A stretch of 64,000 nt of DNA from Tagaea sp. (GCA_965279525.1 CBDIIB010000004.1:32001-96000), one strand, 5' to 3'. Shown: positions 1,373 to 52,954, counted from the first letter of the stretch. A program made the numbers and translations. Notes: generated from the sequence alone by a model not told the origin.

Positions 1373-1449
1373 CGGAGCGTAGCGCAGCCCGGTAGCGCAT
1401 CAGTCTGGGGGACTGGGGGTCGCAGGTTCGAATCCTGTCGCTCCGACCA
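1373..1449 (+). tRNA. tRNA-Pro(GGG), intact, 77 nt with encoded CCA
   Basis: CGGAGCG acceptor stem, anticodon loop CT-GGG-GG, GGTTCGAATCC T-loop, CGCTCCGACCA end. Confidence 0.97.
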
Positions 1450-1466
1450 AATCGACTAAATAAAAC

Positions 1467-1497
1467 AGGGCCCTGGCGAGAGATCGCCAGGGCCTTT
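1467..1497 (+). terminator. Hairpin terminator after tRNA-Pro (type A)
   Basis: AGGGCCCTGGCGA-gaga-TCGCCAGGGCCTTT. Confidence 0.75.
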
Positions 1498-1726
1498 CTC
1501 ATGCGAGACTATGTGCGGCAGGCGGGAGCGGGATGGGGTGCGTCGATTTGAATTGAACCCGCTTTCACCACGTTGCACGACCAAGCGTTTCAGGAAAGTC
1601 GTACGAGTCATTTGAGGCGGCTTTGTCGGACGGCGTGGCGAGAACGAGTTTGAGGTGGCGGGCTGCTCGCTTGATGCCGGTTTCGATGGCGATGCGCGCG
1701 GCCGCTCCATCGCGCGCCTATACGTG

Positions 1727-1897
1727 TCACAGAGGTGCCTCGCGGACAGGCGTGACGCTTACTCCGAGTTCGTCGGCAAGTTGGCGAAGGCGCAGTGTCT
1801 GTCGAGGCGGAAACCGTCAGGCCATCAGGGCTTTGCGGATGATCCGATAAATCTGCGCGCAGAGAATCTCCTTTCGGTAGGGATCAAGTTCGTTCAA
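1727..1897 (-). pseudogene. GntR-family regulator remnant (HTH only, internal stop)
   Basis: LNELDPYRKEILCAQIYRIIRKALMA*RFPPRQTLRLRQLADELGVSVTPVREAPL*. Confidence 0.8.
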
Positions 1898-2018
1898 GAC
1901 TGCCGATGAGTTCGGGACGTGGCATGCGTCCGAGCGCAACATTTGCACCCGGAGCGAAAACTTTATGCCATCGGATGTGACCATGAGGATCCGGCTCTCC
2001 AGGCACCCGATTGCCTGA

Positions 2019-2687
2019 TCAGGCGCCAGAGCGTGAATTGAAGATGCCGATCGCGCGACGCGAACGCTCGGCGATGTCTTTCCAGTTTGCCGCTTCGATG
2101 ACGTCGCGCGGTGCGAGCCACGCGCCCCCGGCCGCGAAGCAGTTTTCGAGTGCAAGATAGGTGAGGAAGTTGGCGTCACCGATCCCCCCTGTCGGGCAGA
2201 AGCGGATGTCGGGATAGAGCGGCAGCACGTGCTTCAGCGCCGCGATACCGCCGAACAGATCGGCCGGGAAAAACTTGAGCTCATGAAAGCCATGCTCGCG
2301 CGCGATCAGCATCTCCGACGGCGTGACGGCGCCGGGTATGTACGGCAACCGGATCCCGGCAGCCGCAGCGGCGAGGCGGTCGGTCAGCGCGGGACTTACC
2401 GCGAACTGTGCGCCGGCGTCGCGCGCCTGTGCCAACTGTTCGGGCTTCGTGACGGTGCCCACGCCGACGACAGCTTCGGGGAACGCCTTGCGCATCCGCT
2501 GGATCACCGCCAGCGCGCTGGCACTGCGCAGCGTCACTTCCAAGGCGACCAGTCCACCGCCGACCAGTGCTTCGGCCAACGGTTCGGCATGGTCGGCATT
2601 CTCGACATGCAGGACCGGAATGAGCGGCGGGCGCTTTCCGATCAGGGTGGCGAGCGACGGGCGATCGGTGGTCGAAGCTTCAGTCAT
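2019..2687 (-). CDS. eda: KDPG/KHG aldolase
   Basis: EVTLRS, GVGTV, FAVSP, PGAVTPSE, LKFFPA, FCPTGGI motifs; start at MTEAST. Confidence 0.93.
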   Translation of the reverse strand: MTEASTTDRPSLATLIGKRPPLIPVLHVENADHAEPLAEALVGGGLVALEVTLRSASALAVIQRMRKAFPEAVVGVGTVTKPEQLAQARDAGAQFAVSPALTDRLAAAAAGIRLPYIPGAVTPSEMLIAREHGFHELKFFPADLFGGIAALKHVLPLYPDIRFCPTGGIGDANFLTYLALENCFAAGGAWLAPRDVIEAANWKDIAERSRRAIGIFNSRSGA

Positions 2688-3041
2688 GGAAGTCTCTCTT
2701 TCGGGGAAACTCTGCGGTTTGGCGGGTCGGCCGAGGCGACTGATAGGCCTGTGCCGGAGGGCTACGCATCTTGTCAACCGTCTCCGGTCGCGCCGCAAGG
2801 GCGTAGGCCCGCACAGAATCAGACCAGGGTCGTCGAGGATAAGGTCGCCGATCGCCTGCATAGCGGCAGGCATGCCGCCGGCGAGGCTGGGGGGGGCAAT
2901 ACCTGAGCCGTCGCAGTCCCCGAAGCGCCGTTTGGCGGCACCAAGCATAGCGGCTATGGTCGCGAGGGCGGGGCTTCGGTAATCTACGAATATCTAACAC
3001 CAAGTTCGTCCACACGCGCCTGACGGCCTGACGGCGGGAAC

Positions 3042-4775
3042 ATGAGCAAGAAAATCGAACTGTCGGACCTGCGCAGCCAGCGCTGGTTCGGGGCCGCGGG
3101 CCAGCCCGGCAACCACAAGTCCTATCGCACGAAGCAGATGGGCTTCACGAGCGAGGATTTCCAGAAGAAGCCGGTGATCGGTATCCTCAGCACGTGGTCC
3201 GATCTCAACAGCTGCCATACCCATTTCCCGCAGCGTATCGAGGAAATCAAGCGAGGCGTCTGGCAAGCCGGCGGCTTCCCGGTCGTGATGCCCACACTCA
3301 GCGTCGGCGAGACGTTCGTGCGTCCCAGTACGCTGATCTACCGCAACCTGCTGGCGATCGACGCCGAAGAGATCCTGCGCTCTCACCCGATCGATGGTGT
3401 CGTGCTTCTCGGCGGCTGCGACAAGACGACGCCGGGGCTGGTCATGGGAGCCGCGTCGATGAACATCCCGGCGATCTTCGTGCCGGCCGGCGCCATGCTG
3501 CGCGGCAACTGGCGTGGCCAGACTCTTGGCAGCGGTTCGAGCACCTGGAAAGCGCTTGCCGATTTCCGTGCCGGCAAGATCGACGAGCAGACCTGGCGCA
3601 GCTTCGGCGAGGGGACGTCACGCTCGCCGGGTACCTGCAATGTGATGGGAACCGCCTCGACGATGACGAGCCTCGTCGATGTGTTGGGTTTGACTCTTCC
3701 GGGCGCAAGCTCGATCCCGGCGGTCGATTCCCGGCATTCGCAGATGGCCTCCCTGTCGGGCCGGCGTATCGTCGACATGGTGTGGGAGGACTTGCGCCCA
3801 AAGGCTTTCATCACGGCGAATAGCTTCCGAAACGCCGTCATTGCCGACATGGCGCTGTCGGGGTCGACGAATTCCCTGATCCATCTCGTCGCGATGGCCC
3901 GCCGGCTCGGGCTGGAACTGTCGCTCGATGATTTTGCATCAGCCAGCGAGACTGTTCCGGTCATCTGCAATCTGCAACCCAGCGGCAAGTATCTGATGGA
4001 AGATTTCTATTACGCGGGCGGGCTGCCTGTGCTGCTGTCGCGCCTAAAGGACCATCTCGACCTCTCGTGCATGACCGCGAATGGCCATTCATTGGGCAGC
4101 AATATTGCCGACGCGCAGGTCTACGACGACGATGTCATCCGGCCGGTCGCGGATCCCGTCTATGCCAGCGGGGGGCTTGTCGTGCTGCGCGGGAACCTTG
4201 CGCCTCGTGGTGCGGTTCTGAAGCGCGCGGCGGCCGATCCCAAGCTGCTGCAGCACACCGGCCCGGCGGTCGTGTTCAAGAATTTCAAGGACATGCTTGC
4301 CCGCGTCGATGATCCGGACCTGCAGGTGACAGCCGACAGCGTGCTCGTTTTGCAGGATGGCGGCCCGGTCGGCGGTCCCGGCATGCCGGAATGGGGAATG
4401 CTGCCGATCCCGAAAAAACTGCTGGAGCAAGGCGTGCGCGACATGGTGCGCATCTCCGACGCGCGCATGAGCGGCACGAGCTACGGCACTTGCGTGTTGC
4501 ATGTTTGCCCCGAAAGCCGCGTGGGCGGGCTGCTCGGGTTGGTGCGCGATGGAGATCCGATCCGGCTGGATACGAAGGCGCGCACGCTCGACCTGCTGGT
4601 CGACGTGGCGGAGATCGAGGCCCGTCGCAAGGTCTGGGTCGCTCCGCCGCCGCACTACGAGCGTGGGTACGGTGCACTATTCTCCGAGCACGTGCTGCAG
4701 GCCGATGAAGGCTGCGACCTCGATTTCCTCGCGCGGCCCGGCGACATCCCGGATCCCGAGGCACGCTTCTCCTGA
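3042..4775 (+). CDS. IlvD/Edd-family dehydratase (L-arabinonate/pentonate dehydratase-like)
   Basis: NSCH, GGCDKTTPG, GTCNVMGTAST, ISDARMSGT motifs. Confidence 0.92.
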   Translation: MSKKIELSDLRSQRWFGAAGQPGNHKSYRTKQMGFTSEDFQKKPVIGILSTWSDLNSCHTHFPQRIEEIKRGVWQAGGFPVVMPTLSVGETFVRPSTLIYRNLLAIDAEEILRSHPIDGVVLLGGCDKTTPGLVMGAASMNIPAIFVPAGAMLRGNWRGQTLGSGSSTWKALADFRAGKIDEQTWRSFGEGTSRSPGTCNVMGTASTMTSLVDVLGLTLPGASSIPAVDSRHSQMASLSGRRIVDMVWEDLRPKAFITANSFRNAVIADMALSGSTNSLIHLVAMARRLGLELSLDDFASASETVPVICNLQPSGKYLMEDFYYAGGLPVLLSRLKDHLDLSCMTANGHSLGSNIADAQVYDDDVIRPVADPVYASGGLVVLRGNLAPRGAVLKRAAADPKLLQHTGPAVVFKNFKDMLARVDDPDLQVTADSVLVLQDGGPVGGPGMPEWGMLPIPKKLLEQGVRDMVRISDARMSGTSYGTCVLHVCPESRVGGLLGLVRDGDPIRLDTKARTLDLLVDVAEIEARRKVWVAPPPHYERGYGALFSEHVLQADEGCDLDFLARPGDIPDPEARFS

Positions 4776-4791
4776 CCACGCGGCCGAAACG

Positions 4792-5970
4792 TCATACGCG
4801 ATGGACGTCGACCCACTTGCCGAGCTTTGTCGAGGCCAGGCACGCTTCGACGAATGCGAGGCCGTCGGCGCCCTCTTCGGCCATCGGTACGCTCGAAAAA
4901 AGCGGATCGGGCGCCATGTTGAGCCGGCGCGCGGCAACGAGTTCGGCGAAGTCCCGATAGAGATTCGCGAACGCCTCGAAGAATGCTTCCGGATGGCCGG
5001 CGGGAATGCGCGCGGCGGCGCGGGCGAGGGGATGCAGCGTGGGAAGGCCGCGCGTGCGGATCTCGGCCGGGCAGGCATTTCGCATGAAGCGCAATTCATT
5101 TGCCGTGGCCTGCTTCCAGGAAATGCCTCCGGCCTCGCCGTAAGCCTCGATCGACAGCGCGTTCTCGGCACCCGTTGCCGCTTTTGTGACGAACAGGGCA
5201 CCTCGCGCCCCGCCTTCGAGGCGGACGATCACCGATGCCGTGTCGTGTGCGGTACGGCCCGGAATGACCGCCCCGACGTCGGCAAGTACCGCCTCGATCC
5301 GCCGGCCAGTGACATAGCCGACAAGCTGATGCACGTGCGTGCCGATATCGCCGAGTACATGGCTGAGGCCGCCGCGCAGGGGATCGAGCCGCCATCGCAG
5401 CCGGTCGGGGATCTGTTCCGGATGGTCCTCGACGCGCGTGCCGAGCGAGCCCTGCAAATAGGACGCATGGACCACACGCAACTGGCCGATTTCGCCGGCA
5501 GCAATGGCGGCGCGCGCCTCGCGGACCATCGGATAGCCCGAATAGTTGTGCGTGACGCAGAGCAGGCGCTTGCGTGCCTTGGCGCGCGCGACGAGGTCGA
5601 GCGACGAGGCGAGATCGTTGGTCAGCGGCTTGTCACAGATCACGTCGAGTCCGGCATCGAGTGCGAGTGCGGCGTAGCCGTGATGGCTGTCATTCGGTGT
5701 CATGATGGCGACCGCGTCGATCCCGTCGGATCGTGCGGCTTCGCCGGCAACCATCGCCGCCACGCTTTCGTAGCCGCGCGGCAGGCCGAGGCGGGCGGCC
5801 TCCGAGAGCGCCTTATCTTTGTTCGATGACAGCGCGCCGGCGACGATGTCGAAGCATTCGTCGAGGCGTGCCGCGACGCGATGGACGGGACCGATCAACG
5901 CGCCGCTGCCGCCGCCGATGAGGCCGAGGCGCACGCGGCGGCCGAGTTTCGCAAGTGCGGGAGTCGACAT
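4792..5970 (-). CDS. Gfo/Idh/MocA family oxidoreductase
   Basis: GLIGGG, TPNDSH, CDKPL, DIGTH, GHPE motifs. Confidence 0.9.
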   Translation of the reverse strand: MSTPALAKLGRRVRLGLIGGGSGALIGPVHRVAARLDECFDIVAGALSSNKDKALSEAARLGLPRGYESVAAMVAGEAARSDGIDAVAIMTPNDSHHGYAALALDAGLDVICDKPLTNDLASSLDLVARAKARKRLLCVTHNYSGYPMVREARAAIAAGEIGQLRVVHASYLQGSLGTRVEDHPEQIPDRLRWRLDPLRGGLSHVLGDIGTHVHQLVGYVTGRRIEAVLADVGAVIPGRTAHDTASVIVRLEGGARGALFVTKAATGAENALSIEAYGEAGGISWKQATANELRFMRNACPAEIRTRGLPTLHPLARAAARIPAGHPEAFFEAFANLYRDFAELVAARRLNMAPDPLFSSVPMAEEGADGLAFVEACLASTKLGKWVDVHRV

Positions 5971-5981
5971 GTTCGGTTCTC

Positions 5982-6779
5982 TCAGCGCAGGCCGGCGTTC
6001 ACGAGAAGCATCTGTTTGGTGATCATCCGGCTGTCGTCGGCTGCAAGGAACAGTGCGGCATCGGCAACGTCCTGCTCGCGGACCATTTCAGGAATGCATT
6101 GCTGCGCGAGGATGCGGGCTGTCGATTCTGGCGTGTGCCAAAGCCGCATCTGCCGTTCGGTCATCACGGCACCCGGAGCAAGCGCGTTTACGCGGATGCG
6201 GTCGGGACCGAGCTGCCGGGCAAGAGAATTCGTCAACCCGACAATGCCGGCTTTCGCGGCGCTATAGGCTTGGAGGTCGGCGATGCCGCCGACCCATGCG
6301 CCGGAACTGACATTCACGATCGAGCCACCGCCGGCGGCGCGCATCTGCGGGGCGACGGACTGGGCGGCGAAGAAGTGGGGCCGCAGGTTGATGTCGATCG
6401 ACCGATCGAAGCTCTCGGGAGTCACCTCGGCAAAAGGCTGGCGTGAATCGTTTGCCGCGTTGTTGATCAGGATCGTCGCATTGCCGAGCCGCTTTCCGAT
6501 CGCGCCGATGGCCGCCTGGAACGCGGCGATGTCTGTCAGATCGCAATGCGTATAGGTCGGTGCCGTGTGTCCGGCGGCTGCAATTTCGTGCAGGAGCCTC
6601 TCAGCCGGCTCGTCCTGGATGTCCAAAAATGCGACGTGCGCGCCGTTCGCCGCGAACGCTCGTACGATCGCCTCGCCGATCCCCGATGCGCCGCCCGTGA
6701 CGATCGCGACACGACCTGCCAAGCTTGGATAGCGCGCGCCGCCGCCGCGCTTGTCATTTTGCTGATTCATCGGGTACAC
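5982..6779 (-). CDS. SDR oxidoreductase, resembles NAD-dependent D-xylose dehydrogenase type
   Basis: YPSL...TGGASGIG, NNAAND, YSAAK; start may be ATG at 6770. Confidence 0.85.
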   Translation of the reverse strand: MYPMNQQNDKRGGGARYPSLAGRVAIVTGGASGIGEAIVRAFAANGAHVAFLDIQDEPAERLLHEIAAAGHTAPTYTHCDLTDIAAFQAAIGAIGKRLGNATILINNAANDSRQPFAEVTPESFDRSIDINLRPHFFAAQSVAPQMRAAGGGSIVNVSSGAWVGGIADLQAYSAAKAGIVGLTNSLARQLGPDRIRVNALAPGAVMTERQMRLWHTPESTARILAQQCIPEMVREQDVADAALFLAADDSRMITKQMLLVNAGLR

Positions 6780-6971
6780 GGCTTAGTTTCCGCCAGCACT
6801 ATTGTCAACGGTCCGGCGATGCGGACGATATGCTGGCCGTCTTCCCGCCCTCGAATCATCCGAAGACCGGTCCGGAGACGAACGAGCTCATCCGGACTTC
6901 CCAGGCTCAGTCCGTGTAGGCAGCTTGGCAGCGTATTGACGGAATCCGGGAGAGGCAGCGGTAGGCGGGGT

Positions 6972-8075
6972 TCATGCGATCAAGACGCCCGTGGCCGGAT
7001 CGAAGAGGCAAACACGGCGCATATCGAGGGCAAACCGGCCACGGTCGCCGGGCTGCAGCCGTACGTCGGGCGACACGCGTGCGAGCGCACGCTCGCCGCC
7101 GAGGCGCGCGAGAACGATGGTCTCGGCGCCGGTCGGCTCAGTCATCTCGACGGGCAGTTCGAGGGTGACACGTTCTCCGCCGTGTCCGAACCGGCGATCT
7201 TCCTCCGCGATGCACTCGGGCCGCAGGCCGAGGACGACTTCGCGGCCGGCCTGTGCTGCAAATGCGGCGGGTAACGGCAGTGCAACGGCCGCCTCGCCTT
7301 GGCCGACCACTGCGCGCACTCCGTCCGAGGCGGTTTCGATGCGCGCCGGCAGCGTGTTCATCGGCGGCGCGCCCATGAAGCGCGCCACGAACAGGTTGGC
7401 CGGGCGGTTGTAGACCGTATCGGGGTCGGCGAATTGCTGGATCTCGCCCTGGTGCATCACTGCGATGCGCGTCGCCATCGTCATCGCCTCGATCTGGTCG
7501 TGGGTGACGTAGACATTGGTGGAGCGGATGCGCTGGTGGAGCTGCTTGATCTCCATGCGCATCTCGACGCGAAGCTTGGCGTCGAGGTTCGAGAGCGGCT
7601 CATCGAACAGGAACAGAAGCGGGTCGCGCACCAGCGCGCGACCCATCGCGACGCGCTGGCGCTGGCCGCCGGAGAGTTGCGAGGGCTTGCGGTCGAGCAG
7701 TTTCTCGATCTGGAGGAGGGCGGCGACCCGCGTCACGGCGGCTTCGCGCTCGCCCTTCGGCACGTTCCTGCACTCGAGGCCGAACGTGATGTTCTGGCGC
7801 ACAGTCATCGACGGATAGAGGGCGTAGGTCTGGAACACCATCGCGATGTTCCGGTCCTTGGGCGCAATGTCATTGACGATCCGGCCGCCGATCTCGACCG
7901 TACCGCCCGTCGCGGGTTCCAGACCGGCGATGATGTTCAGCAATGTCGACTTGCCGCAGCCCGATGGCCCGACCAGTACGGTGAACTCGCCGTTCTCGAT
8001 TTCCATGTCGATACCCTTGAGCACGGACATCGCCCCGAAGGACTTGGTTACACCGCTGAGACTGAGGGCCGACAT
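6972..8075 (-). CDS. Sugar ABC transporter ATP-binding protein (MalK/UgpC type)
   Basis: GPSGCGKST, LSGGQRQR, DEPLSNLDAKLR. Confidence 0.95.
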   Translation of the reverse strand: MSALSLSGVTKSFGAMSVLKGIDMEIENGEFTVLVGPSGCGKSTLLNIIAGLEPATGGTVEIGGRIVNDIAPKDRNIAMVFQTYALYPSMTVRQNITFGLECRNVPKGEREAAVTRVAALLQIEKLLDRKPSQLSGGQRQRVAMGRALVRDPLLFLFDEPLSNLDAKLRVEMRMEIKQLHQRIRSTNVYVTHDQIEAMTMATRIAVMHQGEIQQFADPDTVYNRPANLFVARFMGAPPMNTLPARIETASDGVRAVVGQGEAAVALPLPAAFAAQAGREVVLGLRPECIAEEDRRFGHGGERVTLELPVEMTEPTGAETIVLARLGGERALARVSPDVRLQPGDRGRFALDMRRVCLFDPATGVLIA

Positions 8076-8085
8076 TGAGATACTC

Positions 8086-8958
8086 CTACTTCACCGCGCC
8101 GGCCGTCAGCCCGCGCAGGAAGTATTTTCCGCCGAAAAGATAGACGAGCAACGTCGGCAATGCCGCGAGGACGACGGCCGCACTCTGCACGCCGTATTGG
8201 GGAACGTCGGCGATGGCCGCGTTGAGCCCGATTAGCGCCGCCGTCACCGGCTGCTGGCTGCCGTTCGTGAAGGTCACGCCGTAGAGAAACTCGTTCCAGA
8301 TATGGGTGAACTGCCAGATCACCGTCACGATCAGGATCGGCGGCGACAGCGGCAGCACAATCCTGAAGAAGGTACGGAAGAAGCCTGCGCCGTCGATGCG
8401 GGCGGCCTTCATCAGGTCCTGCGGAATGGAGACGTAGTAGTTGCGGCAGAACAGCGTGGTGAAGCTCATACCCTGAATTGTGTGGATCAGGACGAGTCCC
8501 GTTAGCGTGTTGATGAGGCCGATGTCGCGCAGGACGAAGGTCCAGGGAATCAGTCGTACCTGCTGCGGCAGGAAAATCCCGAGCGTGACCAATCCGAAGA
8601 TCCATGTGTCGCCGCGGAAGCGCCACAGCGAAATCGCATAGCCGGCGACCGCTCCCAGCAGAGTCGAGACGATGGTGGCGGGTATCGTCACCGCGGCCGA
8701 GTTCCACATGAAGGGCTGCAGCCCGGTGCAGGTCTGCGCGACGCAGAATTCCGACCACGCTTCGGCGTAGTTGGGGAAGGCCCAGCTTTCAGGCCATCCG
8801 ATCATCGAGCCTTGGGCGATCTCCTGCGCCGTGCGTAGCGAGTTGAGTACAACGACGAGGAAAGGCACGAGGAAGGCCAGGCCAAGGGCCCAGACCACCA
8901 CATGCGCCAGCAGCCGCCCCCAGGCGGGCATCGTGTCGGGCGTGGTCCGCTCAAGCAT
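8086..8958 (-). CDS. Carbohydrate ABC transporter permease
   Basis: TM segments, EAA-like KAARIDGAG; start MLERTT overlaps upstream stop. Confidence 0.92.
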   Translation of the reverse strand: MLERTTPDTMPAWGRLLAHVVVWALGLAFLVPFLVVVLNSLRTAQEIAQGSMIGWPESWAFPNYAEAWSEFCVAQTCTGLQPFMWNSAAVTIPATIVSTLLGAVAGYAISLWRFRGDTWIFGLVTLGIFLPQQVRLIPWTFVLRDIGLINTLTGLVLIHTIQGMSFTTLFCRNYYVSIPQDLMKAARIDGAGFFRTFFRIVLPLSPPILIVTVIWQFTHIWNEFLYGVTFTNGSQQPVTAALIGLNAAIADVPQYGVQSAAVVLAALPTLLVYLFGGKYFLRGLTAGAVK

Positions 8959-11178: not shown

Positions 11179-11287
11179 GGGGTTTCCTCTTCAGTTTTTC
11201 GCCAATTATTGTGACTGCTGTTGGCAAGACGAGGGTAGCGCGTAATTTGGCGGTAGCAATCGTTTTTTGGCGCAGACGACAGATTAG

Positions 11288-43302: not shown

Positions 43303-43315
43303 CGGCTCTCCTTAT

Positions 43316-43945: not shown

Positions 43946-43957
43946 CCGCGTTTTCCT

Positions 43958-44383: not shown

Positions 44384-44513
44384 TCCAGTCGCAAGGCCAT
44401 AGTGGCGCTACCTGTCCGCTGACATTCAGGTGGATGGAGGGAGAGAGCTTCCCCCCGTTCCGGGTGGCTTTCAATAACTTAAGCGCTTCGGCGCCTCCGT
44501 CGTCGACCTAGCC

Positions 44514-44726
44514 GACACGCCCCGCCCGACGCCGCCGATCGGGCAGCGCCCGCACGCCAGCCCCCATCACAATCTCGTGCACGCCGTTCAGGGCGTCGAC
44601 GTCGATCTTAAGGTTGCCGATGGAAGAATCGTTGCCTGTGGCGGAAAGCTCGTGACGGCCGACATTCGCGAACTGATCGCCGGAGTACATTCGATAGTGC
44701 CGGGTCTTCTGTCGCTCAGACCGTAA
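44514..44726 (+). pseudogene. C-terminal remnant of a metal-dependent amidohydrolase
   Basis: DTPRPTP...HHNLVHAVQGVDVDLKVADGRIVACGGKLVTAD...*; no upstream part. Confidence 0.55.
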
Positions 44727-44765
44727 AAAATCCCACTGCCTGGCAACCGGCGCGGGCTTTGTCGT

Positions 44766-45461: not shown

Positions 45462-48181
45462 CTCGGCTCCGGCCGGGCTTCGTCGGGCTGCGGATCGACC
45501 GGCAGGTCGACGATCGCGCGCGTACCGTAGCTGTCGATGATCGGGCTTTCCAGCCGAACCGTCCCGCCGTGCGCCTCCACGAGGCCACGACAGATCGCAA
45601 GCCCCAATCCGGTTCCGGCGATCTGCCGGTCGCCCCAGCGCCCATCTTCCCCGCCGCGCACGCGATAGAACTTGTCGAAGACGCGCTCGAGATCGGTGGC
45701 AGGGACGCCTCGGCCGCGGTCCTCGACGGTGATTCGCAGCCGCGAGCCGATTACGGAAATCGCAACGGAGATCGACGTGCTGTCCGGCGAGTATTTGGTC
45801 GCATTGTCGAGAAGATTGTAGAGAGCCTGTCCGAGCAGTGTCGGATCGACACGCAGCAGCGGCAGGTTCGGGCTGGCGGATACGGTCACTTCGCGTGCTG
45901 GAAGTCGCTTGCGCAGTCGCGCCACGGCGGTACCGGCGAGTTCGCGTACATCCGTCCAGTCGCGCCGAAGTGCAAGTGCGCCACCCTCCAGACGTGTCAT
46001 ATCGAGCAGGTTGCCGACGAAACGCGCGAGGCGTTCGGATTCCTCGTGGATCGCGTCAAGGAGCTGCCGGCGCGAATGTTCGTTGAGGCCGCTGCCAGTC
46101 CGCAGCGTGGAAATGGCCCCGGTGATCGTCGAAAGCGGTGTACCGAGATCGTGGCTGATCGACGAGAGCAGTGCGGCCCGCAGCTTCTCGGATTCGGCAA
46201 GCACCTTGGCCTCGCGCATTTCGGCGTCAAGCCGCATGCGGCCAATCGCGATCGCGGCCTGATCGGCAAGCGCGTCCAGCAGGCGACGCGCATCGGGATC
46301 GAGTGATTTGCCATTCGGCGGCCGGATGCCCAGTACGCCGACCGGTCCCGCCGCCGTGCGCATCGGCACATAGAGCCGCTCGGCCGACGGCAGCGTGCCG
46401 GAGCCTAGGCCAGCCGCTTCACCCTTGTCGCGAGCCCAATGGGCGGCCGCCCAATCGCCGGCTGGCAGATCGTCCTCGGGTGGATAGCCGCCGCGCACGA
46501 CAAGTCGCTCGTCCTGGCCGAGCAGCACGACGGTGCCGGCGCCGAGCATCGTCGCCACCTGATGGGCGACGATCCAGACAAGGTCGTCGAGAGCTGCAGC
46601 GGCGGCGAGTTTTCGCGCGAAGTCGTAGAGGGCCGCGGTCGTACGAAAGCGCCGGCGGGCATCGGTCGCCTGCTCGCGAACGCGGCTGGCCTGACTCGAG
46701 AGCAGGACAGCGACGACGACGAAGATCGCCAGCGCCAAGATGTCGCGCGGGTCGCCGATAGTCAGCGTCAGGTAGGGCTCGACGAAGAAGAAGTCGAAAA
46801 CCAATGTGGCCAGCAGCGAGGCATAGAGCGACGGCGACAGGCCGAAGCGTACTGCCGTGTAGATGATCGACGTGAGCAGCAGGATCGGCTCGACGTTCGG
46901 CGTGTCGAACTGCAGGCGAAGCAACCAGCACAGCCCGGCTGCAGCGAAAACGGCACCTGTCGCCTCAATGAATGGCCGTGGCCCCTGGGCCGCACGCGCG
47001 GCAAGCCGGACACGCAATGCGGCGGTGAGCCTTTCGCGCGCCGACGGGCCGTCCGATGGCACGATGTGCACGCCGATCGCATCGTTTGCGCGGATCAACT
47101 CGTGCACGAGAGACCGGCCAAGCCAATCACGCCAGCGCGGCCGTCGGGTCTTGCCGATTACTATTTGGGTGATGTTCTGGCCGCGCGCGAGATCGAGAAT
47201 CTCGGCGACGACGTCGGATGTGGGGATCACGCGCGCCTCGCCGCCGAGCCGATCCGCAAGCTTCAGCGCATCGGCAATGCGCGTCTTTGCGGCCTCGTCG
47301 AGGCTGGCGTGGTGCGGGGTCTCGAAATTGACCGCCATCCATTTGGCACCGATCTGGTCCGCCAACCGCCTGGCCGCGCGAACGATGGGGGCTGGATCGG
47401 GATACGCTGAGATGCAGGCGAGGATGCGCTCGCCCGCCGGCCACGGCCCCGGAATCGCCTGACGCAACATCAGCCCGACCATCTGGTCGTCGACTCGTTC
47501 GGCCGTGCGGCGAAGCGCCAGTTCGCGCAAGGCGGTCAGGTTGCCGGGCCGGAAGAAGTGCTCGACCGCTCGTTCGGCGTTTGCGCCCTTGTATATCTTG
47601 CCTTCCTTAAGACGCTTGATCAGGTCATCCGGCGTGAGATCGACGAGTTCGATCGCGTCGGCGCGCTCGAGTACGGAATCCGGCAGCGTCTCCTGCACCC
47701 GCACGCCGGTGATTTTCGCGACGATGTCGTTGAGGCTTTCGAGGTGCTGGACATTCAGCGTCGTCCAGATATCGATGCCGGCGGCAAGCAACTCCTCGAC
47801 GTCTTGATGGCGCTTGGGGTGACGCGATCCCGGCGCGTTCGTATGAGCGAGTTCGTCGACGAGCAGCAGGCCCGGCCGGCGGGCGAGGGCTGCGTCGATG
47901 TCAAATTCTTCGATCTCGTGCCCGCGATGCACGAGTTTACGGCGGGCGAGGACCTCGAATCCGTCGAGCTTGTCAGTGGTAGCGTCGCGATCATGTGTTT
48001 CGATGATGCCGGCGACGACATCGATCCCCTCGGCCTTGCGCGCCTGAGCTGCTTCAAGCATCGCATAGGTCTTGCCCACGCCGGGGGCAGCACCCAGGAA
48101 CACCTTAAGGCGGCCGGACCCTTCGGTCTTGGCGACCGCCAGTAGCGCATTCGGATCCGGGCGGTCGTCGGCGTTGGTCAT
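45458..48181 (-). CDS. kdpD: Sensor histidine kinase KdpD
   Basis: GAAPGVGKTYAML, VDELAHTN, SSISHDL. Confidence 0.97.
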   Translation of the reverse strand: MTNADDRPDPNALLAVAKTEGSGRLKVFLGAAPGVGKTYAMLEAAQARKAEGIDVVAGIIETHDRDATTDKLDGFEVLARRKLVHRGHEIEEFDIDAALARRPGLLLVDELAHTNAPGSRHPKRHQDVEELLAAGIDIWTTLNVQHLESLNDIVAKITGVRVQETLPDSVLERADAIELVDLTPDDLIKRLKEGKIYKGANAERAVEHFFRPGNLTALRELALRRTAERVDDQMVGLMLRQAIPGPWPAGERILACISAYPDPAPIVRAARRLADQIGAKWMAVNFETPHHASLDEAAKTRIADALKLADRLGGEARVIPTSDVVAEILDLARGQNITQIVIGKTRRPRWRDWLGRSLVHELIRANDAIGVHIVPSDGPSARERLTAALRVRLAARAAQGPRPFIEATGAVFAAAGLCWLLRLQFDTPNVEPILLLTSIIYTAVRFGLSPSLYASLLATLVFDFFFVEPYLTLTIGDPRDILALAIFVVVAVLLSSQASRVREQATDARRRFRTTAALYDFARKLAAAAALDDLVWIVAHQVATMLGAGTVVLLGQDERLVVRGGYPPEDDLPAGDWAAAHWARDKGEAAGLGSGTLPSAERLYVPMRTAAGPVGVLGIRPPNGKSLDPDARRLLDALADQAAIAIGRMRLDAEMREAKVLAESEKLRAALLSSISHDLGTPLSTITGAISTLRTGSGLNEHSRRQLLDAIHEESERLARFVGNLLDMTRLEGGALALRRDWTDVRELAGTAVARLRKRLPAREVTVSASPNLPLLRVDPTLLGQALYNLLDNATKYSPDSTSISVAISVIGSRLRITVEDRGRGVPATDLERVFDKFYRVRGGEDGRWGDRQIAGTGLGLAICRGLVEAHGGTVRLESPIIDSYGTRAIVDLPVDPQPDEARPEPR

Positions 48182-48193
48182 GCAGACTTTCGG

Positions 48194-48754
48194 CTACGGC
48201 CGCAGTGCGTCGAGGGCAAGATTGAGGCCGAGAACATCGACCCGTGGCTGCCCCAGTATGCCGAGTTCCCGGCCGTACGTGAACTGTGTCAACAGGTTCC
48301 GGACCCGGGCTTCCGGTAACCCGAGTGCGGCGGCAACCCGCGCGACCTGGCGCTCGGCGTTTGCAGGCGAGATATGCGGGTCAAGGCCGGATGCGGATGC
48401 CAGAACAGCATCTGCAGGCACCGGCTTCGGCCCTCCAAATGTTTCGACGTCGATCTTCACGCGCTCGATAAGCTTGGCCGACGTCGGCCCTAGATTGGCA
48501 CCGCCGGAAGACGTCGGGTCATAACCGCCGCTGCCGGCGGCAGACGGCCGTCCGTGGAAATATCGGCCGTTGGCGAAATTCTGGCCGATCAGTGCCGATC
48601 CGATGACACGACCGTCGCGTTCGATCAACGAGCCGTTAGCGGAATGGCGAAACGCAATCTGGCCGATACCGGTAACCAGCAGCGGATAGAGCACGCCGCA
48701 AATCACCGAAAACGCGATCAGTAGAACAAAGGCAGGGCGGACATGGACGTACAT
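48194..48754 (-). CDS. kdpC: K+-transporting ATPase subunit C
   Basis: ANGSLI, GSALIGQ, YFHGRPS, SASGLDPHIS. Confidence 0.95.
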   Translation of the reverse strand: MYVHVRPAFVLLIAFSVICGVLYPLLVTGIGQIAFRHSANGSLIERDGRVIGSALIGQNFANGRYFHGRPSAAGSGGYDPTSSGGANLGPTSAKLIERVKIDVETFGGPKPVPADAVLASASGLDPHISPANAERQVARVAAALGLPEARVRNLLTQFTYGRELGILGQPRVDVLGLNLALDALRP

Positions 48755-48762
48755 GGCAAACC

Positions 48763-50802
48763 TCACGCGAGCCCGAGGGCGGAAACGAGAATGTCGACGG
48801 CCTTGATGCCAACGAACGGAACGAGGATGCCGCCCAGCCCGTAGACGAGCAGGTGACGGCGCAGCAGTTCGCCGGCCGGCATCGGGCGATAGGCGATGCC
48901 CTTCAGCGCCAGCGGGATCAAAGCCACAATGATCAGGGCGTTGAAGATCACCGCTGACAAGATGGCGCTTTGCGGCGTGGCCAACCCCATGACATTGAGC
49001 GCGCCTAGCTGCGGGTAGGCGGCGACGAACAGTGCCGGGATGATTGCAAAGTATTTCGCGACGTCGTTGGCGATCGAGAACGTCGTCAGTGCGCCGCGCG
49101 TCATGAGGAGCTGCTTGCCAATGCCGACGACCTCGATCAGCTTGGTCGGGTTCGAATCGAGATCGACCATGTTGCCGGCTTCGCGTGCAGCCTGCGTGCC
49201 GGTCTGCATGGCGAGTCCGACATCGGCCTGGGCGAGGGCGGGCGCGTCGTTCGTACCGTCGCCGCACATCGCGACCAACCGGCCCTTGGCCTGCTCGGCG
49301 CGGATGAAAGCGAGCTTGTCTTCGGGCGTCGCCTCGGCGATGAAATCGTCCACGCCAGCCTCGGCGGCAATGGCCGCGGCGGTCAACTTGTTGTCGCCGG
49401 TGACCATCACAGTGCGCACGCCCATCCGGCGAAGCTCGGCAAAGCGCTCGCGGATTCCGGCCTTGACGATGTCCTTCAGGTAGATGATGCCGAGGAGACG
49501 AGTACCTGTGGTACCCGTCTCCGCGACAGCCAGTGGCGTGCCGCCGCTGCGCGCGATGCGTTCGACCTGTTCAGCCACCACCGTCGGCAGCGGGACGCCT
49601 GCGAACCGTACGATAGAATCGACGGCCCCTTTGCGGATCCGCCGTCCCGGCAGGTCGACACCGGAAATCCTGGTCTGCGCAGTGAAGGGGACGAACACGG
49701 CCGAAGGGTCGCCGGCGGGCGCCGCTCCAAGCCGTTCCTGGGCGAGACGGACAATCGAGCGTCCTTCGGGCGTCTCGTCGGCGAGCGAAGCGAGAAGGGC
49801 CGCCTCGGCGAGCTCCCGCTCTGATACGCCCAGTGCGGGCACGAAGGCCGTCGCCATGCGATCGCCCAGCGTGATCGTCCCGGTCTTGTCGAGCAGCAGC
49901 ACATCGACGTCGCCGGCCGCTTCGACCGCGCGGCCCGACGTCGCCAGCACGTTGAACTTCACTAGCCGGTCCATGCCCGCGATCCCAATCGCCGAGAGCA
50001 GACCGCCTATGGTGGTAGGGATCAACGTCACGAACAGCGCGACCAGAACCGTCAACGACAGGGCAGCTCCGGCGTAGGCCGCGAATGCTGGCAGCGTCGC
50101 GACGACCACGACGAAGATCAGCGACATCCCGGCGAGAAGAATGTTCAGCGCGATCTCGTTGGGCGTCTTCTGCCGAGAGGCTCCTTCGACGAGGGCAATC
50201 ATCCGGTCGAGGAAGCTCGATCCCTGTGCCGCCGTGATCTTGACCTTGATCCAATCCGACAGCACGACCGTGCCACCGGTGACGGCCGATCGGTCGCCGC
50301 CAGACTCCCGGATGACCGGGGCAGATTCGCCGGTGATGGCGCTTTCATTGACCGACGCGATGCCTTCGACGACGGAGCCGTCGCCCGGGATCGTGTCGCC
50401 CGCCTCGACCATGACGACGTCGCCAACCTCTAGCTCGGTCGCGGACACCTTCTCGTATATGTCGCCGGGGCCGTATACGATTCGCTTGGCCCAGGTCTCG
50501 GTCTTCACCTTGCGCAACGCGTCGGCCTGCGCCTTGCCGCGCCCTTCGGCGACGGCTTCGGCGAGATTGGCGAACAGGACGGTGAACCAAAGCCAGGCCG
50601 CGATCTGCCCGGAGAATCCCGCTGCCTGGTCGCCGGCAAGATCCCGGGCGAAGGTGAGAGTTGCGACGCCAGCAACCACAGCAGTGACGAAGATGACCGG
50701 ATTGCGGACGAGGCCGCGCGGATCGAGCTTGGCGAAAGCCGCGCGGACAGCCGGCAACAGGATCGCGGGGTCGAAAAGCGAGATTTCCTTGGCGCGTGCC
50801 AT
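48763..50802 (-). CDS. kdpB: K+-transporting P-type ATPase subunit B
   Basis: [17 protein letters not shown]. Confidence 0.97.
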
Positions 50803-50826
50803 GGTCGTTGTTCCTTTGCTGCGCGA

Positions 50827-52536
50827 TCAGAAGGTCTGGCCGGCAAGCATCGCGAAATGCTCGACGATCGGACCGAGAGCGAGGGCCGGGAAGAAGCTGA
50901 GGCCGCCGACGACCAGGATCGTGCCGGCAAGCAGCACGACAAACAGCGGCCCGTCGGTCGGGAATGTGCCATCGGAGGCGGGCACGCGCTTCTTGGCGGC
51001 AAGTGCACCAGCCAGGGCGAGCACCGGCACGATGATCGCGAAGCGCCCGACCAACATGGCGATCCCAAGCGTTGTATTCCAGAAGTGCACATTGGCTGTG
51101 AGGCCGGCAAAGGCCGAGCCGTTGTTGCCGACGGCCGACGTATAGGCGTAGAGCGCCTCGGAGAAGCCGTGCGGGCCGGCGTTGTTGAGCCCGTCGAGCG
51201 CGCCCGGCCAGAGCAGGGCGAGGGCCGTAAAGGCCAGAATGAGGACTGGCGGGACAAGTACGACGAGACTTGCGAGCTTGACTTCGCGCGCCTCGATCTT
51301 CTTGCCGAGATATTCCGGTGTGCGCCCGACCATCAGGCCGGCGACGAATACCGCAATCACCGCGTAGACCAGCAGGCCATAGAGACCGGAGCCGACGCCG
51401 CCGAACACGATCTCGCCGAGTTGGATCATGAACATTGGCACGAGGCCGCCGAGCGGCGTGAAACTGTCATGCATCGCGTTGACCGAGCCATTGGAGGCGG
51501 CGGTGGTGACCACGGCCCAGATCGCCGACCAGGCGATACCGAAACGGGTCTCCTTGCCCTCCATGTTGCCGTCGGCGGGATCGAGACCAAGTGCGATCAG
51601 GATCGGGTTGCCGGCGGCTTCGGCTGCATAGCAGGCCAAGAGACCGCCGAGCAGAAGTAGGGTCATCGTCGCGAGCAGGACGGTTCCCTGGCGCGAGGCA
51701 CCGACCATCCGGCCGAACGTGACGGCGAGGGCGGCCGGGATTGCCAGGATCGCCCACAACGACAGTAGGTTCGTCCACCCGTTCGGGTTCTCGAACGGGT
51801 GGGCGGAGTTGGCGTTGAAGAATCCGCCGCCGTTGGTGCCGAGTTGCTTGATCGCGATCTGCGAGGCGACCGGGCCCAGCGCGATCGTCTGTGAGGCGCC
51901 TTCGAGCGTTGTTGCCTCGACATTGGCCGAAAAGGTCTGCGGCATGCCGAACGCTACGAAGGCGATGGCCAGAACCAGCGAGACCGGAAGCAAAACATAA
52001 AGAGTCCCGCGCGTCAGGTCCGCCCAGAAGTTGCCCACGCCACGCGCTTCGACGCGCGCAAACCCGCGCGCCAGCGCCAATGCCAGTGCGATGCCGGTCG
52101 CCGCGGAAACGAAGTTCTGCGTTGCGAGACCGACCATCTGCGACAGGTGGCTCATCGTCGACTCGCCGGCATAGGACTGCCAGTTCGTATTGGTGACGAA
52201 GCTCACGGCCGTATTGAACGCCAGATGCGCATCGACCGAAGAGAGATCGTTGGGATTGAGCGGCAGCACGTCCTGTAGCCGCAGTAGCGCATAAAGCAGG
52301 ACGAAACCTGCGGCGTTGAAGGCAAGCATCGCGCCGACATAGCCGAGCCAGCCCTGATCGCGCGTCGCATCGATGCCGGCAACCCGGTAGAGACCGGCCT
52401 CGACGCGCCCGACGAGTGGGGACAAAAATGTCCGTTCGCCAGCGAAGACGCGCGCCATGTAAACGCCCAGCGGGACGGCACTGGCGAGGACCAGGCCAAC
52501 GACAAGCAGAATCTGCAGCCATCCCATCGGGGTCAT
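50827..52536 (-). CDS. kdpA: K+-transporting ATPase subunit A
   Basis: TNTNWQ, TNGGG, SNGS, NNGSAF selectivity motifs. Confidence 0.97.
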
Positions 52537-52564
52537 GGCAGGTACTCCGGTTCTCTCGTGTGTT

Positions 52565-52651
52565 TCAGAATTTCTCGGGCGCCAGCAGGGCGACCGCGAG
52601 ATAGATAAAAAGGGCGATTGCGACCGCGCTGCCCAGGATCAGCTCGAACAT
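52565..52651 (-). CDS. kdpF: KdpF peptide (28 aa)
   Basis: [28 protein letters not shown]. Confidence 0.92.
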
Positions 52652-52661
52652 CGGATATCCC

Positions 52662-52745
52662 TCACAGCCGCGTGCAGGCGCGCGCGAACAGCGCCATCGC
52701 GGCGAACAGGCCGGTCCCGAGTGCCAAATAGAGAAGGTCTTCCAT
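52662..52745 (-). CDS. 27-aa hydrophobic peptide upstream of kdpF
   Basis: GGAGG RBS; MEDLLYLALGTGLFAAMALFARACTRL*. Confidence 0.75.
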   Translation of the reverse strand: MEDLLYLALGTGLFAAMALFARACTRL

Positions 52746-52820
52746 GTCCGCCTCCAACGTTGAGGCCGGGACTATGGATCCGAGTGCCGTAGCCGTTCGA
52801 TGCGGAACTCAGGGCTGTGG

Positions 52821-52838
52821 CATAAGGATTTCATAAGG
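52821..52838 (-). promoter_or_regulatory. Putative KdpE binding site
   Basis: Direct repeat CCTTATG-aaat-CCTTATG (11-bp period) upstream of the kdp operon. Confidence 0.6.
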
Positions 52839-52852
52839 GCGATTTATTGCTC

Positions 52853-52954
52853 TTGGTTTCCACCCATTTCCCTCCGTTGCCGGAAGTCATGGAAACCGCC
52901 TCGAAATCATCGAATAGTCGAGAAACTGGGGGACTGGGAGTCGTTGGTTCGAAT
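52853..52954 (+). repeat. att junction 4 (degenerate): arm plus truncated tRNA-Pro core
   Basis: TTGGTTTCCAcccATTTCC...TGGAAAC...GAAATCAT.GAATA then CTGGGGGACTGGGaGTCGttGGTTCGAAT. Confidence 0.85.

Follow-up and report, generated by a model that had tools for sequence, protein, structure and literature searches.

The 3′ half of the Tagaea sp. tRNA-Pro gene recurs several times downstream of the intact gene, and between the copies lie gene sets that have nothing to do with one another. What assembled these units, and can they still move? We addressed this in a 64,000-nt stretch (GCA_965279525.1 CBDIIB010000004.1:32001-96000), hereafter the window, to which plain positions refer; C4 marks coordinates on its contig, and the genome is called G000. 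An earlier note had proposed that the locus is an integron-like array of four integrase-free cassettes served by one trans-acting integrase.

The tRNA-Pro(GGG) gene and its partial copies

The intact tRNA-Pro(GGG) gene (1373-1449, + strand) stands at the head of the array as target and attB/attL core. It is the sole tRNA gene that ARAGORN finds in the window, the single Rfam match in the window agrees, and it is the one GGG-anticodon tRNA-Pro gene genome-wide. A 35-nt piece of its 3′ part has four zero-mismatch matches (1415, 12029, 24560, and 30891), with none expected from 100 shuffles. In BLAST alignments, identity begins in the anticodon stem/loop and is unbroken over 48 nt at 12016-12063 and at 24547-24594 and over 45 nt at 30881-30925; the copy at 52926 has degenerated, with 80.8% over 104 nt, arm included. 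The exact copies at 12016, 24547, and 30881 and the degenerate one at 52926 that had been claimed are confirmed, and the resulting unit spacings are, as reported, 10.6, 12.5, 6.3, and 22.0 kb. The locus is thus laid out as a tRNA-targeted array is expected to be, with an intact tRNA and, at the island boundaries behind it, directly repeated copies of its 3′ part. Since tRNA positions 30-33 are where identity begins, the recombination crossover is shown to fall in or near the anticodon loop.

An arm of ~70 nt precedes all copies of the tRNA half, as the earlier note had recognized, and is absent upstream of tRNA-Pro itself. The copy ending unit 1 shares 91.4% identity over 116 nt with that of unit 2 and 89.3% over 121 nt with that of unit 3. 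Arm 1 (11944-12015, +) contains two direct GTTTCC-type sites, two inverted GGAAA(C) sites, and an A/T-rich CATTGAAATCATTGAATAA box; it leads into the first direct repeat (12016-12063, +), in which tRNA positions 30-77 are copied exactly over 48 nt. Arm 2 (24476-24546, +) precedes a second exact 48-nt copy (24547-24594, +) and arm 3 (30806-30880, +) an exact 45-nt copy (30881-30925, +), each followed by a T2-type terminator hairpin. Arm 4 (52852-52925, +) precedes the degenerate tRNA 3′ half (52926-52964, +). At the right end of every unit, a P-arm (two GTTTCC, two inverted GGAAA(C), and the A/T-rich box) leads into a displaced 3′ half of the tRNA, and a terminator comes last. The left ends have in common only the tRNA half and one of two short terminator-like hairpins (T1/T2), so the assertion that both ends are conserved holds for the right ends alone.

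Nor does the array stop at 52954, where it had been said to end. It continues through an arm+core copy with an 8-nt deletion at C4:121016-121149 (window-equivalent 89016-89149) and a core remnant at C4:125337-125386 (window-equivalent ~93,340); an orphan arm+core copy lies on a different contig (C5:689469-689607, minus strand). Because the right flanks of arrays are not alike between genomes, the true outer limit is uncertain. The array here totals six or more att-bounded units, or at least nine cassettes when fused ones are counted. Units measure 6-36 kb, carry genes on both strands, and bring their own regulators (IclR, KdpDE, and RpiR); the cassettes are multi-gene and span 4-15 kb.

Cargo and reassortment of the units

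The cargo overall is ordinary metabolism and transport. Unit 1 (1450-11943) opens with a T1-type hairpin and encodes a KDPG/KHG aldolase, a dihydroxy-acid/6-phosphogluconate dehydratase, a GFO/IDH/MocA oxidoreductase, an SDR, and a sugar-type ABC transporter (ATPase, two permeases, and binding protein); the same cargo forms one block in G008 and G012 and two separate loci in G019. Unit 2 (12064-24475), likewise behind a T1-type hairpin, encodes a SnoaL-like protein, an FAA hydrolase, a cupin dioxygenase (HgmA_N), an IclR regulator, two SDRs, a flavin reductase, peptide-type ABC permeases with a binding protein, and a BKACE enzyme. Its matches in 20 other genomes of the genus reach only ~70%, which is paralogue level. 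Unit 3 (24595-30805) holds an IS transposase fragment (rve_3, 119 aa, 25327-25686), a secretin with TPR (27090-29042, minus strand), and a Sel1-repeat protein (29889-30767); in G015, a unit placed directly behind tRNA-Pro(GGG) matches the secretin segment at 79% identity.

Two cassettes follow. Cassette 4A (30926-44706) encodes a beta-eliminating lyase, an AMP-binding enzyme, an FAD oxidoreductase, a creatininase-family protein, an alpha/beta hydrolase, a peptide ABC transporter (two ATPases, two permeases, and binding protein), a Zn-dehydrogenase, a glyoxalase-like protein, and a thioesterase. Cassette 4B (44731-52851, minus strand) carries kdpE, kdpD, kdpC, kdpB, and kdpA, encoding a potassium-uptake ATPase and its two-component regulator. 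Between them, a remnant of the core 3′ tail and terminator start (44707-44730, +) is placed by alignment to G019 and matched weakly by nhmmer (E = 1.1). Unit 5 begins within the window (52965-64000) with a cytochrome c, a PRC-barrel protein, a 1419-aa CheB/CheR/PAS hybrid histidine kinase, and a PgaA-like porin; it extends to C4:121015 and, past the window, includes a PgaB-like deacetylase, a GT2 transferase, and branched-chain amino-acid and peptide ABC transporters.

In G019, 4A and 4B are separate cassettes in reversed order, at 92.3% and 90.7% identity. Their junction here bears the scar of a deleted arm+core, with the core tail retained and a 9-nt microhomology at the deletion point; unit 4, judged from these alignments, is two cassettes fused through a small deletion. 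4A is an att-bounded separate cassette in G019 and att-bounded on the contig-visible side(s) in G013 and G012 (89-92% identity). On its left side, which can be seen in three genomes (G000, G019, and G012), the neighbor is a different one each time, and its right neighbors differ in the three genomes where they are comparable (G000, G019, and G013). Unit 5, moreover, contains an entire embedded G007 cassette with a decayed arm at the left edge of that cassette. By genome alignment, then, cassettes reassort between genomes at att sites, the outcome of the comparison of content and order that the earlier note had suggested. The identity of 4A/4B to G019 (91-92%) equals the 92.1% of the conserved left flank, and for that reason vertical descent with in-place rearrangement is indistinguishable from transfer. 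The farther an att site lies from the tRNA, the poorer its quality, both in G000 (Spearman rho -0.89, n = 6) and in G019 (rho -0.86, n = 7); the gradient is absent in G007 (rho +0.1, n = 5).

Integrases of the array heads in relatives

Six-frame searches of the array found no tyrosine or serine recombinase, relaxase, or transposase apart from the IS fragment at 25327-25686, which is also the sole mobility-related match in a Pfam scan of 80 ORFs of this genome. Of the 10 PF00589 matches genome-wide, even the nearest one, at C4:286341, is 190 kb past the window end. PF00239 (two matches genome-wide, both on another contig), MobA_MobL (one weak match genome-wide, on another contig), and rve (four matches genome-wide) have none in the array. 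These searches bear out the claim that no unit has a recombinase or relaxase: the units lack integration and transfer genes of their own, as cis-mobilizable elements (CIMEs) do, and neither the window nor the whole array combines an integrase with a relaxase or oriT as an integrative mobilizable element (IME) would. A cognate integrase was not found anywhere in this genome, where the best tblastn match reaches 30% over 162 aa and lies beside tRNA-Phe; the array therefore cannot be active here at present.

We compared 21 genomes of the genus (this one and 20 others) and examined five arrays closely (G019, G007, G005, G011, and G000). Among the matches listed, the arm is covered by a match in at least 11 of the 20 other genomes, mostly as several same-orientation copies downstream of tRNA-Pro(GGG). 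In G019 the sites number 10 over 100 kb; in G007, five full arm+core sites and one partial arm are spread over 120 kb. An integrase of the kind that the earlier note had suggested looking for beside the arm+core motif is present in eight of the 21 genomes (57-100% identity, one copy each), in every case directly after the tRNA and no more than about 200 bp from the tRNA-Pro core; G001 additionally carries a 40% paralogue. Six-frame PF00589 searches gave exactly one match within each array of G019, G007, and G005 and none within those of G011 and G000.

The G019 head matches Phage_integrase (1.8e-12) and MobA_MobL (1.4e-45) in Pfam; its match to NCBIfam MobQ scores 193 bits, below the cut-off of 200. 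A relaxase was found in the G007 head too by tblastn with the G019 proteins; the G005 head contains the integrase, and the same search gave no relaxase match there. By gene content, the heads of G019 and G007 are IMEs in which an integrase is followed by a MobQ relaxase. The sites closing the integrase-bearing units of G019, G007, and G005 are the same arm+core that flanks the units here, and in relatives integrase-less units with this arm come after the integrase head. Integrase-bearing heads carry GTTTCC repeats in both a P arm and a P′ arm, the latter having three direct copies at 11-bp spacing just upstream of the integrase gene; the integrase-less units are without the P′ repeats. G019 also has three arm-core-arm*-core* doublets, and in each of them the P′ triple repeat stands at the start of the second arm. 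The doublets resemble what would remain of an IME after a deletion from its P′ to its P repeats, which would mean that IMEs once sat inside arrays, and they hint at clean deletions.

The AF2 model of the head integrase (mean pLDDT 83.1) has an N-terminal domain of three strands and a helix, and its best PDB matches are to full-length lambda Int (1z1g_A, E 9e-13, 380 aligned columns), IntI (2a3v) appearing only at rank 20. Against the NCBIfam Xer/integron-integrase model the protein scores only 20 bits (cut-off 220). R228, K256, R322, H345, and Y357 are unchanged across 27 homologues. The modeled fold is thus lambda-like along the whole length of the protein. The family is small and undescribed, with 29 clusters at ≥41% identity among 5.8 billion proteins.

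Probable accretion at tRNA-Pro(GGG) and its alternatives

These comparisons make it probable that the locus is a tandem accretion array at tRNA-Pro(GGG), built through site-specific recombination by an IME-borne lambda-type integrase absent here, with passengers mobilizable in cis and the head lost. The responsible enzyme would be the arm-binding tyrosine integrase of the IME family of the same genus. Newcomers would insert at tRNA-Pro and shift older units outward. Every arm+core may serve as a usable attR, such that integrase and directionality factor could excise the head plus any number of downstream units as cis-mobilizable passengers; a head that later departed alone would leave them behind. 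With the head element apparently gone from this genome, its att-bounded units would at present be accessory operons unable to move, though the arrival of an IME of the same family could remobilize them. Several results count against accretion, among them the lack of a cognate integrase here, of P′ repeats in the units, and of a decay gradient in G007. IME decay, moreover, should leave integrase or relaxase debris, yet tblastn with the integrase (E<1e-2) and with the six further head proteins (E<1e-3) matched none of the 20 integrase-less units in the five arrays. The same zero count speaks against the decayed integrases that would have made the units ordinary degraded islands.

An integron-like platform, in which one trans-acting integrase circularizes single cassettes between two arm+core sites and reinserts them independently of an IME head, would account for the missing head-gene remnants (0 of 20 units) and for genomes with at most one integrase and up to about 10 arm+core sites. 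It would also give the 4A/4B order swap between G000 and G019 directly, at flank-level identity, when a two-site circle reinserts via its other site. Integrase-less units have T1-type left ends both here, directly after the tRNA, and in G013, G012, and G017, and ordinary chromosomal loci of other species correspond to array units here (unit 6 in seven genomes; 4A-like genes, at 75-76%, in four). However, the cassettes hold P-arm sites only, without the three P′ repeats found beside the integrase. Lambda-type integrases normally require both arms for integration. The integrase lies directly at the tRNA in all eight genomes that bear it, a placement that head insertion of lone cassettes would break, and cis hitch-hiking followed by drop-off also accounts for all the reassortment seen. 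We therefore regard such a platform as unlikely. Of the shared integrase in the earlier note, the att-flanked integrase-less units and the single cognate integrase per relative (at most one, always at the head) stand, whereas this genome has none. The likeness to integrons is not supported: the four arms form no stable attC-like single-strand hairpins (DNA folds, z = -1.65, -0.97, +0.05, and -1.96), and the relatives' integrase resembles lambda Int rather than IntI.

A slim but real chance attaches to the proposition that one IME-borne integrase, acting in trans, excises, shuffles, and reinserts operon-sized cassettes singly, and that ordinary chromosome of relatives could become cassettes. 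If true, the array would be an operon-scale analogue of an integron, working by double-stranded, arm-dependent recombination, and would remain a reusable landing pad once the integrase has left.

Alternatively, each unit may have been autonomous on arrival and lost its own integrase later, leaving a static graveyard of ordinary islands whose conserved arms are merely young. In the available part of PMC5704250, decay of autonomous elements is the textbook route to cis-mobilizable elements; the former IMEs suggested by the G019 doublets and the greater decay of distal sites fit such a history. Yet pieces of integrase, relaxase, or other head genes are missing from all 20 integrase-less units, the arrays contain no further PF00589 match, and two orthologue copies occur in none of the 21 genomes. 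Arms are 75-92% identical despite unrelated cargo, and 4A occurs in four genomes with differing neighbors, contrary to a static array, which together leave this history very improbable. That the repeats are a dispersed tRNA-derived or regulatory element, or an assembly artifact, is hardly credible, given that they occur in a single orientation, invariably pair an arm with a tRNA half, and lie only where one gene set gives way to an unrelated one, that the arm matches no Rfam family, that independent assemblies (G019, G013, and G012) have the same junctions, and that 116-nt repeats would not produce units unique in sequence.

Accretion of ICESt1/ICESt3-type CIMEs is reportedly the subject of primary papers by Pavlovic (2004) and Bellanger (2011). 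As far as PMC5704250 is available, CIMEs of this family in Streptococcus thermophilus are att-flanked, lack integration and transfer genes, and accrete in tandem with ICEs/IMEs. The units here share those flanks and that lack, in relatives stand in tandem with an integrase+relaxase element at the 3′ end of the target gene, and would by analogy be expected to undergo composite excision with cis mobilization. They differ from the CIMEs described there in host, target (tRNA-Pro GGG), and integrase family, in having up to about 10 att sites per integrase and no decay debris, and in the lack of a head in this genome. In the accessible portion of McMurdie et al. 2011 (PMC3146451), Dehalococcoides ssrA islands likewise show many direct repeats of an RNA-gene 3′ end, within ~100 kb downstream, and tandem islands with strain-specific cargo; 15 lack the integration module and 16 have it, and the authors consider those that lack it possible CIMEs. 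There, a serine recombinase module is repeated in many islands, with a 20-bp repeat, a 15-bp motif, and a tmRNA target; here, the integrase is of the lambda tyrosine type, never in more than one copy, and the arm is ~70 nt with arm-type repeats. On what these two sources contain, the layout is not unprecedented.

Prochlorococcus tycheposons and tRNA-linked islands (bioRxiv 10.1101/2020.12.28.424599) and the additive flexible genomic islands of Alteromonas (PMC4119200) also resemble the array, in that tyrosine-recombinase elements target tRNA genes, newcomers push older elements deeper into the island, partial tRNAs mark old events, and cargo serves nutrient uptake and metabolism. The passages available from both accounts include fragmented integrases among the remnants, none of which are seen here, and describe no conserved long arm or MobQ relaxase head. 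With integrons the array shares one integrase per ordered array of integrase-less cassettes, a recombination site ending each cassette, and probably older cassettes lying distally. It departs from them in that the integrase of relatives lies inside the first mobile unit; this genome has no IntI-type integrase or attI/Pc platform, and its multi-gene units, on both strands and with their own regulators, are not the mostly promoterless one-gene cassettes in one orientation that integrons collect. The locus is best read as an accretion array, orphaned and made up of CIME-like units, and as a clear further example of a kind already known.

The recognizable arm motif, small integrase family, and cultivable-looking complete genomes make this a convenient study system, suited to asking whether integrase-less units are moved only in cis with a head or also alone. 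An array can outlive its integrase: among the matches listed, no orthologue was found in seven of 12 arm-bearing genomes, two of those assemblies being 83-84% complete. For the genus, ~90 kb of accessory metabolism is arranged as exchangeable blocks at one tRNA gene, comprising sugar and aromatic catabolism, several ABC importers, the Kdp potassium pump, and PNAG-type biofilm genes.

Repeated attachment sites behind tRNA-Pro(GGG)

The only tRNA gene that ARAGORN detects in the window (C4:32001-96000 of the genome, G000) is tRNA-Pro(GGG), at 1373-1449. BLAST aligned its 3′ half (the core) to a series of downstream copies: DR1 (12016-12063) and DR2 (24547-24594) share 48-nt identity runs with the tRNA, DR3 (30881-30925) shares a 45-nt run, and a fourth copy at 52926 is degenerate. 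The runs begin in the anticodon stem and loop of the tRNA, at positions 30-33. A 35-nt piece of the tRNA 3′ part has four zero-mismatch occurrences, against none in 100 shuffles. An arm of ~70 nt precedes every copy, and the tRNA gene itself has none; arm identity is 89-91% among units 1-3, the first of the cargo blocks lying between arm+core sites. These data bear out the observation of an earlier note that the tRNA-Pro 3′ half recurs with a shared upstream arm.

Each arm carries an A/T-rich box and four short sites, two of them direct and of GTTTCC type, two of them inverted GGAAA(C). Each core is followed by one of two short GC-rich hairpins with trailing T's, type T1 behind the tRNA and DR1 and type T2 behind DR2, DR3 and DR5. 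The arm is not a known RNA, as Rfam at gathering thresholds matched tRNA-Pro(GGG) and no other RNA in the window. It is not an attC-like hairpin either: the arms show no stable single-strand folding, and the folds are not significant.

An att-site profile built from 22 arm+core copies located an arm+core with an 8-nt deletion at C4:121016-121149 and a core-plus-T2 remnant at C4:125337-125386, both beyond the window. The same search found an orphan arm+core with a degenerate tRNA half on the minus strand of another contig (C5:689469-689607). The repeats are thus as the earlier note described them, and the array that they form continues past the window.

Cargo and modularity of cassettes

We ran 80 ORFs of this genome (G000) against Pfam; some are alternative frames that overlap, one lies upstream of the tRNA, and three lie downstream of DR5. 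Unit 1 is devoted to sugar-acid catabolism and includes a sugar-type ABC importer. In unit 2, a ring-cleavage set of gentisate/homogentisate-like type is accompanied by a peptide-type ABC importer and an IclR regulator, and unit 3 encodes a Sel1-repeat protein and a secretin. Unit 4 begins with a peptide ABC importer and assorted enzymes, and kdpABCDE comes after them. Unit 5 combines a CheB/CheR hybrid kinase and pgaABC-like genes with importers for branched-chain amino acids and for peptides, and unit 6 carries an NMT1-type ABC importer. The kinase of unit 5 (56279-60538) is a 1419-aa fusion that joins CheB methylesterase and CheR methyltransferase to PAS, histidine kinase and receiver domains. 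Its position upstream of a pgaA/pgaB/GT2 (PNAG-type) cluster hints that the array carries a module for biofilm control.

The sole mobility-related Pfam match among these ORFs is a 119-aa rve_3 transposase fragment (25327-25686). Copies at 85-91% identity are dispersed in several genomes of the genus, and the fragment is the only mobile-element debris of the array. Six-frame searches of the whole genome returned 10 Phage_integrase matches (the nearest at C4:286341), two Resolvase, four rve and one weak MobA_MobL match, every one of them outside the array. The units are therefore free of integrase and relaxase genes, as the earlier note had supposed.

All-against-all comparison of five arrays resolved unit 4 into two cassettes. 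Cassette 4A (30926-44706) is 92.3% identical to unit u8 of the relative G019, and 4B, the kdp operon, is 90.7% identical to unit u7. The order is B then A in G019, with an arm+core between them, and A then B in G000. The junction in G000 sits at a 9-nt microhomology common to A's tail and the core, and it retains a core tail of ~16 nt together with the beginning of B's terminator; an arm+core was therefore deleted there. Copies of cassette 4A with 89-91% identity are also present in G013 and G012. Its left neighbor, visible in three genomes (the G013 contig begins there), is unit 3 in G000, the kdp cassette in G019 and a cassette like the first unit of G011 in G012. Its right neighbor, comparable in G000, G019 and G013, is respectively the kdp cassette, another unit and a cassette like the second unit of G011. 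Cassette order is not invariant across relatives. Genes resembling those of 4A, at 75-76% identity, occur elsewhere in four more distant genomes.

Other units are composite or dispersed as well. An 11.6-kb segment within unit 5 corresponds to an entire cassette of G007 at 80% identity; its left edge still bears a decayed arm (nhmmer E 0.33, plus alignment), and its right edge bears no remnant. Unit 1 forms a single contiguous block in G008 and G012. In G019 it is split into two halves (G019:C1:2427269-2432314 and 2127714-2133529), of which one directly follows another tRNA-Pro gene and one adjoins a different tyrosine integrase. Unit 2 has only paralogue-level matches within the genus, and unit 6 is found in seven other genomes at loci far from tRNA-Pro(GGG). 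Part of unit 3 lies directly behind tRNA-Pro(GGG) in G015, which suggested that it might be the native flank of the tRNA; we ruled this out because the G015 segment is also closed by a partial att site. With fused units counted, the G000 array holds at least nine cassettes. An attempt to trace the T1-type left end to an integrase-bearing element failed, as this end occurs only at integrase-less units, in G013, G012 and G017.

An integrase-bearing element at the head of related arrays

We searched 61 genomes with a 120-nt arm+core sequence. Among the matches listed, arm-covering ones occur in at least 11 of the genus's 20 other genomes; beyond the genus almost solely the tRNA part was matched, with partial exceptions in G022 and G026. 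In complete or near-complete assemblies, arm+core copies share one orientation and lie downstream of tRNA-Pro(GGG), with 10 sites over 100 kb in G019, five full sites and one partial arm over 120 kb in G007, and two sites in G011. A further genome has four copies of the tRNA-Pro(GGG) 3′ half over 87 kb (G009:C6:19411-106479), without the arm type seen in G000 and with no integrase orthologue found; a second arm family probably uses this tRNA in the genus.

Searches of five genomes for Phage_integrase gave 35 matches, exactly one of which falls in each of the G019, G007 and G005 arrays, directly behind the tRNA; the G011 array has none. Orthologues of the G019 integrase (57-100% identity) occur as single copies in eight of 21 genus genomes, all eight within about 200 bp of the tRNA-Pro core, and G001 has an additional 40% paralogue elsewhere. 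Seven of the 12 arm-bearing genomes have no integrase orthologue that we could find (G000, G011, G012, G013, G016, G017 and G003, with G013 and G016 just 83-84% complete); several of the seven assemblies are fragmented. The tyrosine integrase for which the earlier note proposed a search next to the motif is thus present in relatives, and G000 itself has no cognate enzyme.

Behind the G019 integrase gene follow three small ORFs without family match (candidate directionality factors), a MobA/MobL relaxase (Pfam 1.4e-45; NCBIfam MobQ 193 bits, slightly below the cut-off of 200), an HTH protein and an AAA ATPase. The G007 head is similar, at 83-91% protein identity except for one small ORF with a partial match. 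The G005 head has only the integrase and one small ORF in common with that of G019. [quoted passage not shown] When the G019 integrase and six neighboring proteins were compared by tblastn with the five arrays and the whole genome, only head copies were matched, which speaks against decayed integrase or relaxase genes in the units. None of 20 integrase-less units shows a trace of head genes, and so the usual origin of cis-mobilizable elements (CIMEs) by decay is not visible.

An AlphaFold model of the integrase, made from a 27-sequence alignment (mean pLDDT 83.1), shows a three-stranded sheet with a helix at the N terminus, along with a catalytic and a helical core-binding domain. R228, K256, R322, H345 and Y357 are invariant in the alignment. 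Among PDB entries the model matches full-length chains of lambda integrase best (1z1g_A, E 9e-13, 380 aligned columns) and Tn1549 Int next, with the integron integrase 2a3v only at rank 20. The family is small and unnamed, with 29 clusters at ≥41% identity among 5.8 billion proteins and no label other than "integrase". In G019, G007 and G005, three direct GTTTCC repeats with 11-bp spacing (P′) lie downstream of the tRNA terminator and ahead of the start codon of the integrase, and the same hexamer composes the arm (P) at the opposite end of each unit. Arm-type sites flanking the core on both sides are the signature of a lambda-type attP. The GTTTCC arm and P′ repeats around the core fit this pattern and are putative integrase sites.

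The G019 array also contains three doublets (G019:C1 ~2877450-2877752, 2892180-2892484 and 2900293-2900596), in which an arm-core is followed after ~70 nt by a second, divergent arm-core. The second arm starts with a triple GTTTCC repeat like that before the integrase gene. The doublets may be empty cassettes, or ghosts left by whole IMEs that were lost through clean deletion from P′ to P repeats.

Two further loci in G000 resemble head elements. At G000:C3:368399-373001, outside the window, an IME-like head adjoins tRNA-Phe(GAA); relative to the G019 head, its HTH gene (apparently in two pieces) is 85% identical, its AAA ATPase gene 96.5% and its integrase 30%. This integrase, from the only related locus that offers a candidate for action in trans, is not the cognate enzyme, given its low identity and different tRNA, and an accessory module seems to have been swapped between integrases of different specificity. 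At G000:C3:89801-93515, tRNA-Pro(CGG), whose last 26 nt are identical to those of tRNA-Pro(GGG), is followed after 130 bp by an integrase gene and, another 3 kb on, by a weak MobA_MobL match, the only one in the genome. It looks like a sister element at a sister tRNA.

Probable accretion at tRNA-Pro(GGG)

The simplest account of the array is tandem accretion at tRNA-Pro(GGG). An IME of this family would integrate into the anticodon-loop region, so that the 3′ half of the tRNA and its terminator are displaced to a place behind the arm of the element, and units would stack as integrations recur. The att-site profile score drops the farther a site lies from the tRNA, both in G000 (rho −0.89, n=6) and in G019 (rho −0.86, n=7), and shows no drop in G007 (rho +0.1, n=5). 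Samples this small show no more than a trend, one compatible with new units entering at the tRNA and older ones being displaced outward. The earlier note had instead read the units as an integron-like array served by one integrase acting in trans. Such a model accounts more directly for the missing head-gene debris and for the A/B order swap, but the units lack P′ sites, the relatives' integrase is lambda-like, and it always adjoins the tRNA; we consider this model unlikely.

This account corresponds to the CIME/accretion model, as outlined in PMC5704250, and this kind of structure is already known. The ssrA islands of Dehalococcoides (PMC3146451), tycheposon islands (bioRxiv 2020.12.28.424599) and the additive islands of Alteromonas (PMC4119200) are close parallels. 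A general literature search, with queries not specific to tRNA-Pro, met no description of the tRNA-Pro(GGG) array family, which is no proof that it is undescribed.

We found no conserved right-hand chromosomal flank: the flanks of the G019, G007, G011 and G005 arrays map to four different places in G000, and the 4 kb behind DR5 itself ends at a further core remnant. The orphan arm+core on C5 (in the region G000:C5:688820-698996) adjoins an AAA-ATPase homologue with 46% identity to the head protein, and it lies 4 kb from a 5.3-kb segment that is 74% identical to head-unit cargo of G005. The orphan site is probably an array fragment moved by a larger rearrangement, and its proximity to this segment suggests that the arrays also act as breakpoints in such events.

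Under tandem accretion, each arm+core would be a normal attR, and the sole attL with P′ sites would lie at the head; the integrase could therefore excise the head along with downstream units in any number. Excised units would reach another cell by relaxase-mediated mobilization, and some would stay behind when the head later departs alone. With its head absent, the array of G000 is an orphan.
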